A stretch of 64,000 nt of DNA from an uncultured delta proteobacterium (GTDB taxonomy: Bacteria > Myxococcota_A > UBA9160 > SMWR01): the NCBI GenBank assembly GCA_963832165.1, contig CAWHTE010000003.1, positions 608,001 through 672,000 on the forward strand, written 5' to 3'. The notes below the pieces were generated by a model. That model searched no databases. It saw nothing but the letters and a program-made list of their open reading frames with translations, and was not told where the DNA came from. The position numbers were made by a program, and so were the translations under genes. Of this stretch, positions 14,357 to 25,088 are shown piece by piece (within the stretch, counting starts at the first letter, position 1; each line of letters begins with the position of its first letter).

Positions 14357-14406
14357 AGTCCCGCGTCGGGCCGTTAGCTCAGTTGGTAGAGCACCGGACT
14401 TTTAAT
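14357..14406 (+). repeat. Left att: tRNA leader plus 5' half of tRNA-Lys up to the anticodon loop (tRNA fragment 14368-14406)
   Basis: AGTCCCG(C/A)GTCGGGCCGTTAGCTCAGTTGGTAGAGCACCGGACTTTTAAT, 49/50 identical to 25039-25088. Confidence 0.95.
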
Positions 14407-14499
14407 GGGTTTTCAGGTTCGCGGATTTCGCTGCTAGTTAACTAGCTTGCGGACTTAGGCCGTTTCTTCGGAGGGGCCGGGAGCACCTCGGAGGAGCGA

Positions 14500-14521
14500 A
14501 GTCCCACCGTAGTCCCCTCAT
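14500..14521 (+). promoter_or_regulatory. Putative integrase arm-type site pair (left end)
   Basis: AGTCCCACCGTAGTCCCCTCAT matches 24965-24986 at 20/22; tandem AGTCCC with 11-bp period. Confidence 0.65.
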
Positions 14522-15006
14522 TTCAATTCCCGTAGGCGTGCATCGTTTGCGCGCGCATCGGCGATGCCTCGCTTGATCGAGCGTGCGTGCTGAGTGGTGC
14601 TCACGCCCGTGTGGATCGGCGGGCCGTTGAACCGCGGACGACGCTTGAATTCGGCCCGCTCTGCGGCGAGGCGATTCTTGACGCCCTTGGCGCTGTTCGG
14701 CTCGGCCGTGAGTGCGCTGACCGTCTTTGCGATCGCGCGGTGGCGTGCCGCATCGGTGATGCCTGGGATCATGCTCAGGACCGCGAAGAGGTCGTGCTCG
14801 AGGTACGAGCCCCGACGCCGCGGCCGACCGCCAGATACCTCTACCTGGGCCTTCAAGGCGGGGTCGGCCTCGCGATCGAGGTGCTCGCGGATCACCTGGC
14901 GGACCAGGCCGCGGATGCTCTCGTTCATCGGGAGCTGGAACACCGCGAGCTGATCCAGCTCGGGGTCGGGCGCACACGGGCGCTGGAGCTCGTTCACCTC
15001 TGCCAT
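14518..15006 (-). CDS. Hypothetical protein, divergent from the main operon (possible repressor position)
   Basis: 162-aa ORF, the only plausible reverse-strand gene in the element; no family recognised. Confidence 0.5.
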   Translation of the reverse strand: MAEVNELQRPCAPDPELDQLAVFQLPMNESIRGLVRQVIREHLDREADPALKAQVEVSGGRPRRRGSYLEHDLFAVLSMIPGITDAARHRAIAKTVSALTAEPNSAKGVKNRLAAERAEFKRRPRFNGPPIHTGVSTTQHARSIKRGIADARANDARLRELK

Positions 15007-15103
15007 CGTCGGAACGGTAGCGGAGAGCCCCCGAGGAGCCTGAGAGAACCGAGAGACTTTCTGTCATCTAGGGGGACGACGATTCCTGGCCGATCGTGCA
15101 GCA

Positions 15104-15463
15104 ATGGCACTCGATCCGGCTGTCACGACTCCCCGATGGAAACCGCTCAAGGTGCTCGCGCGCGAGACCGGAATCCATCCGCGCCAGCTTCGCCGTGCTG
15201 TTCAACGCGGAGAGCTGGATCACGCACGACCTGGCGCTCGAGTCGTGCTCTCCACCAACTCCGCCGTCGATGCGTGGCTACGCCGGCATCGAGTGCCGAT
15301 CTCGCCGTCAGCGGAAGCGCGGGCCGAGCGCATCGCGGAATCGCTCGCGGCCAGCGAGCCACCAGCGAGCCGTAGAAAAAGCAACGGCCAGGGTTGCCGC
15401 CCCAGCCGTCACGAAAGGAAGAGATCAGGTGAGAACAGAACCCTATCGCCGCCGTCCAGATAA
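15104..15463 (+). CDS. Putative excisionase/AlpA-like HTH protein
   Basis: LKVLARETGIHPRQLRRAVQRGEL...AVDAWL resembles the Xis/HTH_17 pattern; first gene of the operon. Confidence 0.6.
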   Translation: MALDPAVTTPRWKPLKVLARETGIHPRQLRRAVQRGELDHARPGARVVLSTNSAVDAWLRRHRVPISPSAEARAERIAESLAASEPPASRRKSNGQGCRPSRHERKRSGENRTLSPPSR

Positions 15464-15617
15464 GCAAGTCGGCCTCGTTTTGTTGAAGCCCATCCTCGAG
15501 CAAGTACTTCTCGAGCTCGGCTGTCGCTTCGAAGGCCCTGTGCGAGATGGTGTCGAGAAACATCTGTCGCACGCGCTCGACGTGACGCTCGACATAATCG
15601 AGGACGCGGCAGCGTGA
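15429..15617 (+). CDS. Small hypothetical protein
   Basis: GTG after AAAGGAAG; stop overlaps the Prim-Pol start (GTGA). Confidence 0.5.
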   Translation: MRTEPYRRRPDKQVGLVLLKPILEQVLLELGCRFEGPVRDGVEKHLSHALDVTLDIIEDAAA

Positions 15618-23090: not shown

Positions 23091-23168
23091 TACGATCCAG
23101 CGAGGAAAAGCCTTGGAATCCCGCAGCTATTGATTACGGCTTGGTGAAATCAAAGAAAGGGGCGATAC

Positions 23169-23360
23169 TTGACGCCGCGAGGTGGACCGCGAATGGGTGC
23201 AGGCCGCAAGCCGAAAGCGAAAGCGGAGAAGCAGTCCGAGTCTGTGACTGCGACGCTGACGCCGGCCGAGATGCGGCAGCTCAAGGCCAAGGCAGGCCGG
23301 GAGCCGCTCGGTTCGTGGGTGCGGCGGCTGATCCTTCGATCACTGCGGCGCCTGAAATAA
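23169..23360 (+). CDS. Small basic DNA-binding protein (RGG.R.GAGRKP plus RHH-like)
   Basis: RGGPRMGAGRKP then a strand-helix-helix pattern; AAAGGGG RBS. Confidence 0.6.
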   Translation: MTPRGGPRMGAGRKPKAKAEKQSESVTATLTPAEMRQLKAKAGREPLGSWVRRLILRSLRRLK

Positions 23361-23383
23361 CACCTCCCTACATGGAGGACCGA

Positions 23384-23797
23384 ATGGGATCGTCTCTTCA
23401 CCTACTACCGGCACCCGCTGCGGATGCCAGCAAACACGATCTGGGCGAGTGGCTCGAGCTTATCGGCATCGGGACCGTGCTCCTGGCGCGCATGCACATC
23501 GAGGCGGCGTGCGAGGAGCGCAACGAACACGCGCGAGACGTGGCGGCTTGGCTGGTAGACGATCTCGGCACGATCGTGGCCGCGCTCGGCAAGTTCATCG
23601 CAGGCGGGAAGCTCGAGCTGGGCGAGGAGGAGTACGGGCCGGACGCGTTCAATCGCATCACCGACGCGGCGCGCGCGCTGGGTAGGCCACTGACAGACGG
23701 CACCTCCCACTACTTCGACTTCGCGGTCGAGGCCGTCTCCGAGCGGCTGGTCCGCGAGATCAGGAATGTCGAGCAGGCCGCGGAGGCGCGCGCGTGA
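23384..23797 (+). CDS. Hypothetical protein
   Basis: GGAGG RBS; GTGA overlap with the integrase. Confidence 0.6.
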   Translation: MGSSLHLLPAPAADASKHDLGEWLELIGIGTVLLARMHIEAACEERNEHARDVAAWLVDDLGTIVAALGKFIAGGKLELGEEEYGPDAFNRITDAARALGRPLTDGTSHYFDFAVEAVSERLVREIRNVEQAAEARA

Positions 23798-25038
23798 AAC
23801 GAAAACCGAAGGGACTCCGGTATCGAAACCTCTACGCGCGAGGCGGCTCGATTGTCTACGAGCGCATCCTCAAGGGGCGACGGATCAAGCGCAGCCTCGG
23901 CGTGGATGACTGGGCGGAGGCGGCGGCGGTTCGCGACGCGCTCGAGGCGAAGATCGGCGTGGCAACCCTGCCGATCTCGCAGATGCCCACGTTCTCCGAG
24001 ATGGCGACGAAGTACACCGAGGAAGACACGGGGCACCTCGCCGCGACGACGCGCACGGATCGGCGACTGCACCTGGTGGTGGACGGCACCGTGATGCGGC
24101 ATCTCGCCGCATGGCGTCTGGACGCCATCACCTCGGCCACGCTCCGCGAGTGGTGGAATGCCGAGATCCAGAGCACGGAGCGAACGAACGCAACGGGAGC
24201 CCGCTACCTCGCGAGCATCGCGGGCGTATTCAACTACGCCGTGGAACTGGGCTACATCACGGAGAGCCCGGTAGACGCGCTCCGTCGCAGCCTCTCACGG
24301 CGCGAGCGGTCAAAGCAGGGCAGGGCGAGTACCGGATCGAAGGCAAACCCGATCGAGGATCGGGATGCGCTGGCACGATTGGTGACGGAAGCGCGTGCCC
24401 AGGGGCCGGTCGAGTACGTCATCACGTTGGCGATGCTCGACGCTGGCCTGCGCCGTGGTGAAGCGGTCGCACTGAAGTGGCGATCGGTCGCGTGGGGCGT
24501 GTCTGCCGATGATCCGCGTCGGCATCTCTTTGTCTCGGCCACGCGGTCTAGAGATGAAGAAGAAGACGCACCGAAATCGGGTCGGACCCGCCGCGTGCAG
24601 CTCTCGCGGCGCCTGCGTGCCGCACTGGAGGAACTGTTCGAGAAGCGCCGGCCGAAGACGCTCGACGATCGGCTCTGCGGCGACATGAATGGCGAGCAGT
24701 TTCTCAAGGGCCCGTGGCAGCAGATCATCGCCCGCGCCGATCTCCCCGGCCGCGTTCCGAAGGATCTGCGCGACTCGTTCGGCTCGTGGCTCGTGAGTTG
24801 CGCGGTTCCACTGCTCTACGTCTCGCGCCAGCTCGGGCACTCGTCGATCGCCGTTACCGAGAAGCACTACGCAAAGTGGATACCGGGGGGCGGCGACCTC
24901 TACGTTCACCCGCCGATGCTCGATCCCGGCGACGTACCCGCGGATCTGCTGACGCGGCTACCCGAGTCCCACCAGAGTCCCCTCATCGGCGACCCCTTCG
25001 AGCTTCCCGAGTCGCTCAAGTCACCGGATTTGCACTAG
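23794..25038 (+). CDS. int: Tyrosine recombinase/integrase
   Basis: GLRRGE, PKS, KDLRD (in place of HxLRH), LGH, TEKHY; N-terminal arm-binding-like region; stop abuts att. Confidence 0.95.
   Translation: MKRKPKGLRYRNLYARGGSIVYERILKGRRIKRSLGVDDWAEAAAVRDALEAKIGVATLPISQMPTFSEMATKYTEEDTGHLAATTRTDRRLHLVVDGTVMRHLAAWRLDAITSATLREWWNAEIQSTERTNATGARYLASIAGVFNYAVELGYITESPVDALRRSLSRRERSKQGRASTGSKANPIEDRDALARLVTEARAQGPVEYVITLAMLDAGLRRGEAVALKWRSVAWGVSADDPRRHLFVSATRSRDEEEDAPKSGRTRRVQLSRRLRAALEELFEKRRPKTLDDRLCGDMNGEQFLKGPWQQIIARADLPGRVPKDLRDSFGSWLVSCAVPLLYVSRQLGHSSIAVTEKHYAKWIPGGGDLYVHPPMLDPGDVPADLLTRLPESHQSPLIGDPFELPESLKSPDLH
24965..24986 (+). promoter_or_regulatory. Putative integrase arm-type site pair (right end, inside int 3' end)
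   Basis: AGTCCCACCAGAGTCCCCTCAT, 20/22 identical to 14500-14521. Confidence 0.65.
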
Positions 25039-25088
25039 AGTCCCGAGTCGGGCCGTTAGCTCAGTTGGTAGAGCACCGGACTTTTAAT
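25039..25088 (+). repeat. Right att (direct repeat)
   Basis: 49/50 identical to 14357-14406. Confidence 0.95.

Follow-up and report, generated by a model that had tools for sequence, protein, structure and literature searches.

A 10.7-kb island beside a tRNA-Lys gene in the chromosome of an uncultured delta proteobacterium is probably an integrated, PICI-like phage satellite that would package itself into helper procapsids by means of its own motor. The island is no one-off: the two terminase subunits of this motor, TerS and TerL, form the core conserved in a widespread family of small islands with an integrase, a primase/helicase, TerS and TerL. The family counts at least 530 loci in species genomes, and its cultured hosts include Sinorhizobium fredii USDA 205, Bradyrhizobium japonicum SZCCT0148 and Roseicella aquatilis NE82. 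PHROG and Pfam searches found no capsid or portal match in any island ORF, in agreement with a preliminary description of this DNA, and no ORF without a family match is longer than 162 aa (about 175 aa had been given as the upper limit).

Boundaries, replication and regulation of the island

The island is bounded by direct repeats of 53 nt, attL at 14354-14406 and attR at 25036-25088, whose starts lie 10,682 bp apart. The two copies match at 51/53 nt (96% identity), and the att sites are intact, as had been claimed. attL carries a copy of the 5' half of tRNA-Lys, while attR overlaps the intact tRNA-Lys(ttt) gene (25050-25125, + strand; the joint feature spans 25036-25125). The right copy consists of the 14 nt 5' of the gene plus tRNA bases 1-39, and both mismatches are confined to these 14 nt. 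The flanks hold ordinary Gram-negative chromosomal genes (RND efflux, FG-GAP, OMP and RidA).

Apart from one divergent ORF, the genes are read from the + strand. The exception encodes 162 aa (14518..15006, - strand; GC3 0.82, GC2 0.48) and has no match in Pfam, PHROG or PADLOC; its position suggests a candidate repressor of the island. It is followed by an Xis/AlpA-like helix-turn-helix protein (15104..15463), which matches the excisionase family phrog_1840 at 3e-6 and HTH_17 at 20.7 bits, under the cut-off of that model. The coding frames of the island are backed by GC3 with the exception of this ORF, where the signal is weak and the true length uncertain; homologues are found in the closest relative with genomic context (L195), in a second element of the same genome (E2), and in locus L202.

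Replication is likely to depend on a Prim-Pol replicase (15614..16456; PF09250 2.5e-44, phrog_1156 1.2e-30) and an AAA_25 helicase of the RepA/DnaB-like type (16446..17537; PF13481 1.1e-32), whose start overlaps the Prim-Pol stop. The non-coding spacer behind them (17538..17809) contains iteron-like GGTTCAA repeats at 17575, 17593 and 17610 together with inverted copies. In the 64-kb window, that is, the whole stretch of DNA analysed, GGTTCAA occurs six times, and three of the six lie in this spacer, inside a span of 36 nt. The repeat stretch has 47% GC, compared with about 65% in the element. The spacer is a candidate origin of replication, packaging site, or both.

Three genes downstream of TerL precede the integrase, and the first two belong to the backbone shared with relatives. 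A stand-alone HEAGH metallopeptidase of 214 aa (22446..23090), similar to FtsH/M41, matches the C-terminus of Peptidase_M41 weakly (PF01434 27.6 bits, cut-off 29.9), and PF01434 is present in 21-31% of members among its Atlas neighbours. In L195 the homologue (30% identity, E 3e-8) retains HHEAxHA. The second gene encodes an RHH-like DNA-binding protein of 63 aa (23169..23360) with homologues in E2, E3, L195 and L202, of which that in E2 matches phrog_10190 ('DNA binding protein') at 1.3e-6. The third is an ORF of about 141 aa (23372..23797) with an uncertain start, a GC3 frame signal at 23480-23750 and no family match. The tyrosine integrase (23794..25038; PF00589 2.4e-10, phrog_1 2.2e-43) completes the set, and the gene list of the preliminary description (Xis-like, Prim-Pol, helicase, ori-like repeats, TerL, M41-like, RHH-like and integrase) holds. 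The claim of a nearly fully coupled operon is borne out by ten overlapping gene junctions. Eight overlap by 1-4 nt (TerS/138-aa, 138/48, 48/111, 106/61, 61/protease, protease/TerL, TerL/M41-like and 141/integrase), and the other two by 11 nt (Prim-Pol/AAA_25) and 29 nt (111/106).

Packaging motor and inserted module

TerL (20971..22446, +), the large terminase with ATPase and nuclease, matches phrog_9 (2.8e-22) and phrog_2 (3.5e-21) and scores under the cut-offs of the Pfam TerL models. It keeps every ATPase and nuclease residue that is invariant in its family: Walker A G67-K72, Walker B D169-E170, and the nuclease residues D305, D366 and D442-D443. Among 50,697 phage genomes only four records match this TerL, at 21-27% identity, and none is a close relative.

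Which protein serves as the small subunit? The 173-aa protein encoded at 17810..18331 (+) has no database name, and its relatives are found directly 5' of TerL at 59 of 80 loci. The best PDB match of its predicted model (pLDDT 81) is the TerS of HK97, tied with generic helical hairpins (Z 8.2 versus 7.9-8.0), and its best BFVD matches are mostly named 'terminase small subunit'. Prediction of a complex with TerL gave a score of 0.55, compared with 0.01 for the best control, and was graded 'weak support'; the runs share at least 46% of contacts and the partner pLDDT is at least 67. The mark for such predictions is reached by 116 of 157 solved complexes and two of 215 mismatches; at scores up to 0.60, only 18 of the 157 solved complexes reach it, as do both passing mismatches. 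Gene position, the tied fold match and the weak complex score together suggest a putative TerS, and this assignment was counted against the satellite reading.

Between TerS and TerL sits a 2.6-kb module that carries a prohead protease. Its first gene encodes a 138-aa protein (18328..18744, +) that matches phrog_3758, 'virion structural protein', at 8.6e-19. The virion-type protein of the preliminary description is upheld by this match, but the family belongs to the baseplate module and not to the head module, judging from one annotated phage: in Vibrio phage 367.14 its homologue is flanked by baseplate-hub and gp25-like wedge genes. Four coupled small ORFs of 48, 111, 106 and 61 aa follow (18741..19693, +). 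The 111-, 106- and 61-aa ORFs have no match in Pfam, PHROG or PADLOC, and phmmer and tblastn found none of the four in loci L001-L080, L081-L109, L117-L192 and L195-L274. An exact tandem duplication of 409 bp (19324-19732 and 19733-20141), absent from the preliminary description, yields a chimeric ORF (19603-19920) and a second 61-aa gene (19917-20102) and leaves the protease gene whole.

The protease ORF (20102..20974, +; 320 aa, or 290 aa from ATG) has no Pfam S78 match and only a weak one to phrog_4523, 'major head and protease' (5e-4). Its AF2 model (pLDDT 82.7) aligns with T4 gp21 (5jbl_A) over 137 residues at Z 10.8 and an rmsd of 2.9 A, and with the VZV and HCMV assemblins at Z 6.2 and 5.8. 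This fold match bears out the claim of a prohead protease, which had been called HK97-like. The gp21/assemblin fold takes up the N-terminal 166 residues, and H57, H111 and S116 are invariant among relatives. The helical C-terminus varies in length, and the island's tail ranks among the shortest of 21 relatives. Protease-scaffold fusions include P2 gpO and lambda gpC/Nu3. Judged by its model, the island protein is a real prohead protease with a predicted scaffold-like tail. As in HK97/T4-type prohead proteases, the fold is joined to a helical scaffold-like C-terminus, and in IMG/VR phages the homologue lies between the portal and capsid genes; the island copy differs in having no cognate capsid or portal. 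The phages that bear this protease use a different TerL, which does not match the island family at E 0.01. The island lineage acquired the protease from such phages, as an insertion between TerS and TerL that is specific to this lineage.

A family of small islands with a terminase

The architecture of the family was surveyed at 80 GTDB loci with a TerL relative. An integrase of one and the same cluster is present at 57 of them. At 26 loci the element lies between exact repeats of 18-66 nt, shorter than 44 nt in just two cases, and measures 8.0-18.0 kb, with a median of 13.3 kb. The architecture recurs in small att-bounded islands. A scan of 119 of the 123 upstream ORFs that reach or exceed 230 aa at the 40 odd-numbered loci yielded integrases and primase/helicases, and none matched a capsid or portal family. 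Downstream ORFs of at least 190 aa (140 of 142 scanned, 80 loci) include a major capsid protein at two loci and a portal at one. A head-maturation protease follows TerL at eight loci, seven of which have neither capsid nor portal.

The closest relatives with genomic context are L195 (TerL 58% identical), L202 (57%) and E2 (52%), and the island TerL is sister to that of E2 in the tree (support 97). L195, at a tRNA-Arg, carries xis, Prim-Pol, helicase, TerS, TerL, M41-like, RHH-like and integrase genes; E2, at a tRNA-Gly, has the gene order of the island plus an HNH endonuclease. The preliminary description would have given way had all close relatives carried capsid and portal; the backbones of L195, E2 and L202 carry neither, nor a protease. 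Two IMG/VR contigs that appear to be free forms of relatives have terminal repeats, L125 (9,398 bp, 60 nt) and L126 (9,819 bp, 114 nt). The latter encodes an integrase, a replication initiator, the TerS-position protein, TerL, and Neck1-like and tape-measure-like proteins, with no capsid or portal.

Several aspects of the family were counted against the satellite reading. Genes of tail type (tape-measure-like, baseplate hub, Neck1) are present in about 25 of the 80 relatives, and many relatives encode proteins of 200-310 aa after TerL that match no family and possibly have a structural role. TerLs followed by a portal, from true phages, are interspersed among element TerLs in the tree, and the TerL family therefore extends beyond small elements. 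Where the contig is short, some of the short 'elements' may be incomplete pieces.

Comparison with known systems and alternative explanations

The island set fits neither of the two PICI types, having TerL without capsid and portal, as the preliminary description noted. Classical PICIs (SaPIs, EcCICFT073-type) resemble it in size (about 10-15 kb), in the tyrosine integrase at att, the Xis/AlpA-type regulator, the private primase-helicase replicon with adjacent ori, and TerS in the absence of capsid, portal or tail genes. Their replication and TerS proteins are from other families, and they lack TerL and use that of the helper, according to the available text of PMC13612085 and PMC10085698. Like the island, cf-PICIs are small and integrative and have TerS, TerL and a prohead protease. 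The same available text describes TerL as a marker of cf-PICIs and gives them capsid and portal as well; the portions of PMC10085698 at hand add head-tail adaptor/connector genes and a need for helper tails only. None of these capsid, portal or adaptor/connector genes was found in the island or its closest relatives.

P4-like satellites are also alike: they have about 11 kb, integrate at tRNA genes, encode a primase-helicase and build a smaller shell from capsid proteins of the helper. In Gammaproteobacteria, members of the TerL family have P4-type primases (phrog_1829, 8e-180 in L045 and 4e-136 in L075). P4 packages with the terminase of its helper and a cos site, whereas the island family brings its own terminase; Sid, Psu, Delta and Epsilon of P4 were not found in the island. 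Marine VEIMEs, PICI-like tycheposons and PICMIs are likewise small and integrative, with an integrase, a primase/helicase and few or no structural genes. They were found or inferred in virus particles. According to the available parts of PMC9618062 and bioRxiv 10.1101/2020.12.28.424599, VEIMEs and tycheposons bring no more than TerS or a capsid gene and are assumed to use the TerL of the helper; PICMIs are described in the accessible text as having reduced gene content and no capsid-remodelling genes. The haloarchaeal SRCE satellites of spindle-shaped viruses combine a plasmid-type replicon with a morphogenetic module that is incomplete; according to the available text of bioRxiv 10.1101/2025.02.15.638363, it may comprise a packaging-type ATPase, a capsid protein or both. 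They belong to another domain of life and another virus realm, their ATPase is from another family, and they have no terminase.

Could the island instead interfere with phages? TerS-TerL and the protease might disrupt packaging and capsid maturation in an infecting phage, through portal competition or procapsid mis-processing, in an element rarely or never moved in particles. Known satellites hinder helpers via packaging proteins (satellite-encoded TerS, in the available text of PMC9618062), chromosomes from many phyla retain the gene set, and searches for a helper or for encapsidation found none. The 89%-complete assembly has no match to PF05065, PF04860 or PF04586, nor to head or tail proteins of 29 protease-bearing phage contigs, the protease itself excepted. 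One public run gave short 100%-identical contigs at a depth of 2-3 and no junction, and it may represent the source habitat and is not independent. The missing helper and the lack of any sign of excision or encapsidation were also counted against the satellite reading. Interference as the explanation is unlikely, since the catalytic residues of TerL and the adjacency of TerS are what productive packaging needs, the elements keep integrase, own replicon and att repeats, the two terminally redundant relatives have 9-10 kb, and no PADLOC model matches any of 15 ORFs scanned. Interference and self-transfer are compatible with each other.

The preliminary description allowed for a satellite with borrowed proheads or a reduced cf-PICI. 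Its observation of an own motor and protease without capsid and portal stands, but the second option, like that of a decaying small prophage with a left-over protease, is quite improbable. Either would descend from an ancestor with capsid, portal, protease, TerS and TerL by loss of the capsid and portal genes. Such a loss would accord with the major capsid gene after TerL in L040, L047, L148/L149 and L178, with the portal in L039, and with deeper TerL relatives, which are full phages with a portal after TerL. Against it, terS and terL are adjacent in relatives and the protease came in between them from phages with a different TerL, the three closest backbones lack protease, capsid and portal alike, and open, coupled genes with intact att sites show no sign of decay. 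An integrative plasmid-like element or an autonomous miniature virus, with particle proteins among unrecognisable small ORFs, is very improbable. Nine island ORFs have no assigned function, and the relative L178 (8.2 kb, terminally redundant) has TerL, a capsid gene and ParB and no integrase. The unassigned ORFs of the island, however, have 48-162 aa besides the 214-aa peptidase, about 1,000 aa in total, and every HK97-fold capsid protein or portal known to us is larger. To our knowledge, motors of the TerL type are known only with portal-bearing capsids.

For the satellite that we favour, the following cycle is proposed. Infection or induction of a helper phage would derepress the element, with the divergent 162-aa ORF and the conserved HEAGH peptidase as candidate switches. 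The element would excise and replicate from the spacer at 17.5-17.8 kb. TerS would recognise a site on the element, probably near terS, and TerL would dock on the portal of helper-made procapsids and fill them with satellite DNA, before helper tails complete the particle. The module acquired between terS and terL would add a virion protein of a baseplate family and a protease whose short tail resembles a scaffold. This protease-scaffold may enter helper procapsids and either redirect them to a size for about 10.3-10.7 kb or take over maturation.

Such a cycle would require the island TerL to fit a foreign portal, for which no printed precedent was found. The hallmark of the lineage would be a private motor of TerS and TerL without capsid or portal genes. 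The island family, which is widespread and apparently undescribed, most likely rides in the capsids of other phages.

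Boundaries and gene order of the island

The island is bounded by two direct repeats of 53 nt (14354-14406 and 25036-25088), identical at 51 of 53 positions and spaced 10,682 bp from start to start, which bears out the intact att repeats and the size of about 10.7 kb given in the preliminary description. The right repeat comprises 14 nt of upstream sequence and the first 39 bases of tRNA-Lys(ttt) (25050-25125), the sole tRNA gene within the 64-kb window, and both mismatches fall upstream of the tRNA portion. The block of identity therefore takes in the 5' half of tRNA-Lys, upstream of which lies the element; the DNA preceding the functional tRNA thus belongs to the element. 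Integrated elements usually abut the 3' end of a tRNA gene; a second element of the same family in this genome, E2, by contrast with the window element, does so at tRNA-Gly. The GC content of the island is about 65%, against 69-70% for the contigs of the genome. Both flanks are ordinary Gram-negative chromosome, with genes for an aldehyde dehydrogenase, a P450, an RND efflux triplet, an FG-GAP protein, OMP barrels, RidA, TetR, Ku and LigD. Ku and a full four-domain LigD, the non-homologous end-joining pair, lie side by side at 44502-47974 and are unrelated to the element.

The gene order was derived from GC3 frame analysis and from family scans with Pfam and PHROG. A 162-aa ORF on the minus strand (14518-15006), with a GC3 frame and no family match, is followed by genes on the plus strand only: an Xis/AlpA-like helix-turn-helix protein (15104-15463; phrog_1840, 3e-6; weak frame signal, homologues in three relatives), a Prim-Pol (15614-16456; PF09250, 2.5e-44) and an AAA_25 helicase (16446-17537; 1.1e-32). 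Beyond a 272-nt spacer come a 173-aa protein in the TerS position (17810-18331; no family match), a 138-aa protein (18328-18744; phrog_3758 'virion structural protein', 8.6e-19), ORFs of 48, 111, 106 and 61 aa (18741-19693; scans of the last three gave no family match), a protease of 290 aa (20102-20974; weak phrog_4523 'major head and protease') and TerL (20971-22446; phrog_9, 2.8e-22; phrog_2, 3.5e-21). The remaining genes encode a 214-aa HEAGH protein (22446-23090; weak M41 match), a 63-aa RHH-like protein (23169-23360; homologues in relatives), an ORF of about 141 aa seen by GC3 frame alone (23372-23797) and a tyrosine integrase (23794-25038; phrog_1, 2e-43). Genes overlap at ten junctions, at eight of which the overlap is 1-4 nt. 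Family scans and homologues in relatives agree with the Xis-like, Prim-Pol, AAA helicase, TerL, RHH-like and integrase genes listed earlier. The gene calls between Xis and Prim-Pol are uncertain; the GC3 pattern at 15380-15560 fits a minus-strand ORF (15147-15683) or another plus-strand frame better than the annotated Xis frame.

The spacer behind the helicase gene (17538-17809; 47% GC) holds GGTTCAA heptamers, three of the window's six within 36 nt, together with inverted copies. The 'ori-like repeats' of the preliminary description thus correspond to a real heptamer cluster, and from its iteron-like sequence this spacer is a candidate origin adjoining the replicon. The HEAGH protein has been described as an M41-like peptidase. 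It contains the zinc motif and lacks an AAA domain; the M41 profile covers the C-terminal helices alone and scores below the cut-off, and matches to PDB sequences are FtsH-like C-termini at E 0.009. A word-indexed protein search found one other homologue, and its atlas neighbours are clusters partly carrying M41. Reaching into the start of the protease gene there is an exact 409-bp tandem duplication (19324-19732 and 19733-20141), in which the 3' end of the 106-aa gene, the whole 61-aa gene, a spacer and the first protease codons are repeated. A chimeric ORF (19603-19920) and an additional 61-aa gene result from it, and the protease gene stays complete; the duplication either happened very recently or was introduced by the assembly.

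The terminase pair and the inserted module

Relatives of the window TerL numbered 3,431 among 8,000 candidates scored in a large protein collection, the best non-self match being 60% identical. Walker A (G67-K72), Walker B (D169-E170) and the nuclease residues D305, D366 and D442-D443 are invariant in the family. The Pfam models for TerL stay below their cut-off (18.6 vs 23.7 bits), whereas phrog_9 and phrog_2 do match; in 50,697 phage genomes, four records matched at 21-27% identity.

Is TerL accompanied by a small subunit? Homologues of the 173-aa protein adjoin TerL directly upstream in 59 of the 80 loci examined (the best 80 of at least 530, with 10-kb flanks), and begin a median of 448 nt before TerL, in the TerS position; in the window an inserted module parts the two genes. 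One of 48 members of the family matched an unnamed PHROG family, and no PDB profile matched (best E 0.1). The predicted structure is all-helical (pLDDT 81), and its top PDB match in Foldseek is the HK97 small terminase (8pop_B, E 0.21, probability 0.99). The top match by VIA (6z6e_C, Z 8.2, rmsd 2.3 A over 79 residues) is tied with unrelated helical hairpins, and the top BFVD matches are mostly annotated small terminases. Prediction of a TerS-TerL complex gave 'weak support', with a score of 0.55 against 0.01 for the best control, runs agreeing in at least 46% of contacts and a partner pLDDT of at least 67. Of 157 solved complexes, 116 reached the mark for this score, as did 2 of 215 mismatches; the band up to 0.60 contained 18 of the solved complexes and both passing mismatches. 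We call the protein, formerly labelled 'TerS-like', a putative TerS on position first and on the weak fold and complex signals second.

For the protease, just 21 matching proteins, the query included, were found in a collection of 5.8 billion. In its N-terminal domain of about 190 residues, H57, H111, S116 and E160-G-S162 are invariant across the 21, and conservation marks H57, H111 and S116 as candidate catalytic residues. The helical C-terminal tail spans about 100 to about 300 residues among relatives; that of the window protease is of the short kind, as in the two nearest relatives (55% identity). The AlphaFold model (pLDDT 82.7) matches T4 gp21 best (5jbl_A, Z 10.8, rmsd 2.9 A, 137 of 165 residues), followed by the VZV and HCMV assemblins (Z 6.2 and 5.8), with the first unrelated chain at Z 5.3. 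The top Foldseek rows are also herpesvirus proteases and gp21, at weak E values of 0.05-0.6. No Peptidase_S78 match was found in Pfam at E 0.01, PF04586 finds nothing in the genome, and tblastn gave no match in 50,697 phage genomes. The earlier designation 'HK97-like protease' is upheld as to the prohead protease fold.

The genomic neighbourhood of the protease in phages points the same way. Of the 29 IMG/VR loci that encode a relative, 25 had the gene flagged by ORF calls. The next ORF measures 427-505 aa in 22 of these 25, and the preceding one about 700-770 aa in most. In L098, the one such locus scanned, a portal (phrog_2662, 1.5e-61) lies before the protease and a major head protein (phrog_10, 5e-37) after it. 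Fold and phage neighbours together identify a prohead protease with a scaffold-like tail, normally situated between portal and capsid genes. TerL-sized ORFs of the protease-bearing phage contigs gave no match to the window TerL at E 0.01.

The 138-aa protein, formerly a 'possible virion-type protein', belongs to phrog_3758, and a member of this family in Vibrio phage 367.14 lies in the baseplate module, between two baseplate-hub genes and a gp25-like wedge gene. Its atlas matches are unnamed viral clusters. A homologue (32% identity, E 1e-4) is encoded at 6245-6571 of the Ralstonia phage YO084_2 record (ON170138.1, 15,174 bp), which might itself be a satellite-sized genome. How did these genes come to lie between terS and terL? 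The metagenome locus L195 has the window backbone minus the 2.6 kb that begin with the 138-aa gene and end with the protease, which identifies that stretch as an insertion. Searches for the module genes at E 0.001 covered L001-L109, L117-L192 and L195-L274. Among these loci the protease was matched just in L081-L109, a set that had been retrieved through it. The rest of the module gave nothing beyond one chance-level match for the 138-aa protein, on the opposite strand of L024 (E 0.003).

Relatives of the element and the wider TerL family

The host genome (5.5 Mb in 11 contigs, 89% complete) contains two further TerL copies of the same family. E2, about 14 kb in length, lies on contig 5 at about 264,800-278,700 beside tRNA-Gly(ccc). 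It begins with Xis, DUF3102, a fusion of AEP-primase and AAA_25 and a homologue of TerS (8e-36), directly followed by an HNH endonuclease, four small ORFs, TerL, an RHH-like protein and seven ORFs that include a DUF2513 protein and a PEP-CTERM protein as cargo; it ends in an integrase (2e-85 to that of the window) beside the tRNA gene. The third copy, L116 (contig 4, 737824-738887), is cut by the contig end and reads in two frames that meet at 738507-738510, from either a frameshift or a sequencing error. Outside the genome, the nearest relative with context is L195, whose TerL is 58% identical. Its order is Xis, Prim-Pol, a 496-aa protein, TerS, TerL, an HHEAAHA peptidase (30% identical to that of the window, E 3e-8), an RHH-like protein and an integrase beside tRNA-Arg. 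Metagenome relatives of this type were found by a scan with an alignment; a scan with the single TerL found none. Across 44 genomes of the host's taxonomic family there is no near copy of the element; the protease occurs in two and TerL in six, the host's own genome counted in both.

With one genome taken per species, at least 530 of 598 pattern matches encode a TerL relative. The hosts of the best 80 loci are mainly Alphaproteobacteria, together with Gammaproteobacteria, Acidobacteriota, Gemmatimonadota, Nitrospira, Rokubacteria, Binatia, Eisenbacteria and Desulfatiglandales. Carriers available in culture include Sinorhizobium fredii USDA 205 (L034), Bradyrhizobium japonicum SZCCT0148 (L015), Roseicella aquatilis NE82 (L020), Methyloligella solikamskensis (L008) and Sedimenticola hydrogenitrophicus (L013). 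Clustering of neighbouring ORFs placed one integrase cluster in 57 of the 80 loci, where the integrase begins a median of 5.7 kb before TerL. The scan upstream of TerL took in 119 of the 123 ORFs with 230 aa or more in the 40 odd-numbered loci; they are integrases, primases and helicases of several families (P4-type primases included) and flanking host genes, with no capsid or portal among the 119. Exact flanking repeats of 18-66 nt, all but two of at least 44 nt, occur in 26 of the 80 loci on the integrase side and the far side, and the elements they bound measure 8.0-18.0 kb (median 13.3 kb).

Downstream of TerL the picture is more varied. There the scan covered 140 of the 142 plus-strand ORFs that have 190 aa or more and lie within 4.5 kb. 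A major head protein was found in two loci (L040, L047), a portal in one (L039), and a head-maturation protease, of two classes, in eight (L007, L012, L035, L040, L051, L053, L057, L069). Seven of these eight have no capsid or portal in the scanned range and thus repeat the combination of TerL with a prohead protease. On the question of the preliminary description, whether the capsid-less gene set recurs between att sites, the combination is repeated in these seven loci, and repeats bound elements in 26 of the 80. A tape-measure-like protein occurs in ten loci (L012, L019, L024, L034, L040, L041, L044, L051, L062, L065) and a baseplate hub (phrog_196) in five (L023, L048, L058, L062, L079), these loci being reported without a recognisable capsid. 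Scattered Neck1, tail-fibre and 'virion structural' matches are also present. In many loci a 200-310-aa protein of an unnamed family stands right after TerL; Pfam scans of 30 post-TerL proteins of 200-350 aa gave collagen repeats in two and otherwise chance-level matches. In L070 an 848-aa ORF right after TerL (7902-10448) holds a second TerL-like region (phrog_2, 2e-17) and may reflect two elements in tandem or a fusion.

TerL relatives are also encoded in 76 IMG/VR loci. The more distant of these (39-46% identity) have a portal after TerL, confirmed in L153 (phrog_146, 7e-118) and L170, and contigs of up to 116 kb, and are thus true phages. Three small contigs, L125 (9,398 bp), L126 (9,819 bp) and L178 (8,231 bp), carry terminal direct repeats of 60-114 nt and therefore look complete. 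L126 encodes an integrase, a replication initiator, a TerS-position protein, TerL, a 245-aa protein, a Neck1-like and a tape-measure-like protein; L178 combines TerL with a major head protein and ParB and lacks portal and integrase. In a FastTree phylogeny of 141 TerLs, the window TerL is sister to the E2 copy (support 97), and portal-adjacent TerLs are interspersed among those of elements. A single satellite-only TerL clade was considered and dropped, as the tree gave no clean split between elements and phages. This TerL family thus occurs in small elements and in full phages alike, which leaves no ground for claiming a single origin.

A probable satellite with its own terminase

Known bacterial satellites cluster at two extremes. 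At one, the helper's motor and capsid are both borrowed (PICI, P4, PLE, PICMI); at the other, cf-PICIs build their own capsid and motor and borrow tails alone. With classical PICIs the window element shares an integrase and att sites on an island within about 10-15 kb (here 10,682 bp with 53-nt repeats) and its own primase/replicase, Prim-Pol with AAA_25, next to a candidate origin; it differs in that classical PICIs have no TerL and use the helper's, whereas this element encodes a TerL with intact motifs. Classical PICIs are mobilised by helper phages, in whose particles they travel. In the available parts of the sources, cf-PICIs are set apart from PICIs by TerL and also carry capsid and portal (PMC10085698, PMC13612085), VEIMEs and tycheposons have no more than TerS or a capsid gene (PMC9618062; 10.1101/2020.12.28.424599), and archaeal SRCEs offer a conceptual parallel alone (10.1101/2025.02.15.638363). 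The full-text literature searched, in which few subscription journals are represented, contains no description of capsid-less satellites encoding both terminase subunits, and an earlier one may exist elsewhere. We place the element among the phage satellites, of which it would be a variant with its own terminase pair.

Could the island instead be a reduced capsid-forming element? It has TerS, TerL and the prohead protease in common with cf-PICIs, TerS by position, a weak fold match and a weak complex score, and differs from them in that no capsid or portal was found. PHROG and Pfam scans matched no ORF to a major capsid protein or a portal and no ORF is of portal size, as had been concluded from the sequence. 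Nor was a capsid or portal found in E2 or L195, and the notion that all close relatives might carry both does not hold. Another reading is a miniature virus whose structural genes escape recognition. Its room lies in the small ORFs of 48-141 aa, for which profile scans gave no match to a head-tail adaptor or connector of the kind that cf-PICIs carry; the largest ORF without any match has 162 aa, within the limit of about 175 aa first estimated.

A third alternative is a packaging-interference island acting in defence. PADLOC matched no defence model in the 15 ORFs scanned. As to P4-like satellites, PHROG and Pfam gave no match in these ORFs to Sid, Psu, Delta or Epsilon, distant versions of which may escape such libraries. 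Set against these three rivals, a satellite bringing its own terminase is the best-supported reading. Counting for it are an intact TerS-TerL pair with an integrase and a private replicon alongside, on att-bounded islands of 8-18 kb, dozens of carrier species across phyla, and two near-complete circular or terminally redundant relatives. Decay does not readily account for this combination, which would be expected under selection for self-packaging.

How would such a satellite be packaged? The element would be excised, replicated and encapsidated. The window copy adds a protease-scaffold from an HK97-like phage lineage, which could redirect or take over procapsid assembly of a helper; SaPI CpmB, P4 Sid and P2 gpO-type protease-scaffold fusions are analogues of such redirection or takeover. 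A genome of 11 kb is P4-sized. Alternatively, a normal head could be filled by several copies, as reported for VEIMEs in the available part of PMC9618062. In the 89%-complete assembly, no head or tail protein of the 29 protease-bearing phage contigs has a match except the protease, nor is there any hit to the Pfam models of HK97-type capsid, portal or S78 protease; no helper prophage was thus seen, though one may lie in the missing part. One public run, a soil metagenome that may represent the source habitat, shares words with the element (share 0.07). Its scattered identical contigs of 151-267 nt, at a depth of 2-3 and with no junction, are uninformative on attP and on the 409-bp duplication.

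A wider claim, taken as a whole, is a serious possibility that falls just short of being probable: that there is a large unrecognised class of 'motor-carrying' satellites with a core of integrase, replicon, TerS and TerL, which take just an empty procapsid and a tail from their helpers, acquire individual morphogenesis genes according to need (prohead protease, capsid protein, Neck1, tape-measure-like, baseplate hub), occur across Pseudomonadota, Acidobacteriota, Gemmatimonadota, Nitrospirota and further phyla of soil and water, and enter virus catalogues as incomplete phages, TerL being taken there as a hallmark of phages. TerL is a standard marker for finding and classifying tailed phages. 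Islands of 8-18 kb that bear TerL are listed as viral genomes in IMG/VR, and may thus inflate or distort counts of phages and prophages. The family is common, with its 530 or more loci in species-representative genomes and its 3,431 scored proteins, and it is present in phyla without described satellites in the literature searched. If this is true, an island equipped with the motor but lacking the shell would represent a third strategy, in which the satellite is freed from matching the terminase of its helper and the contact between TerL and the portal is the one that matters.
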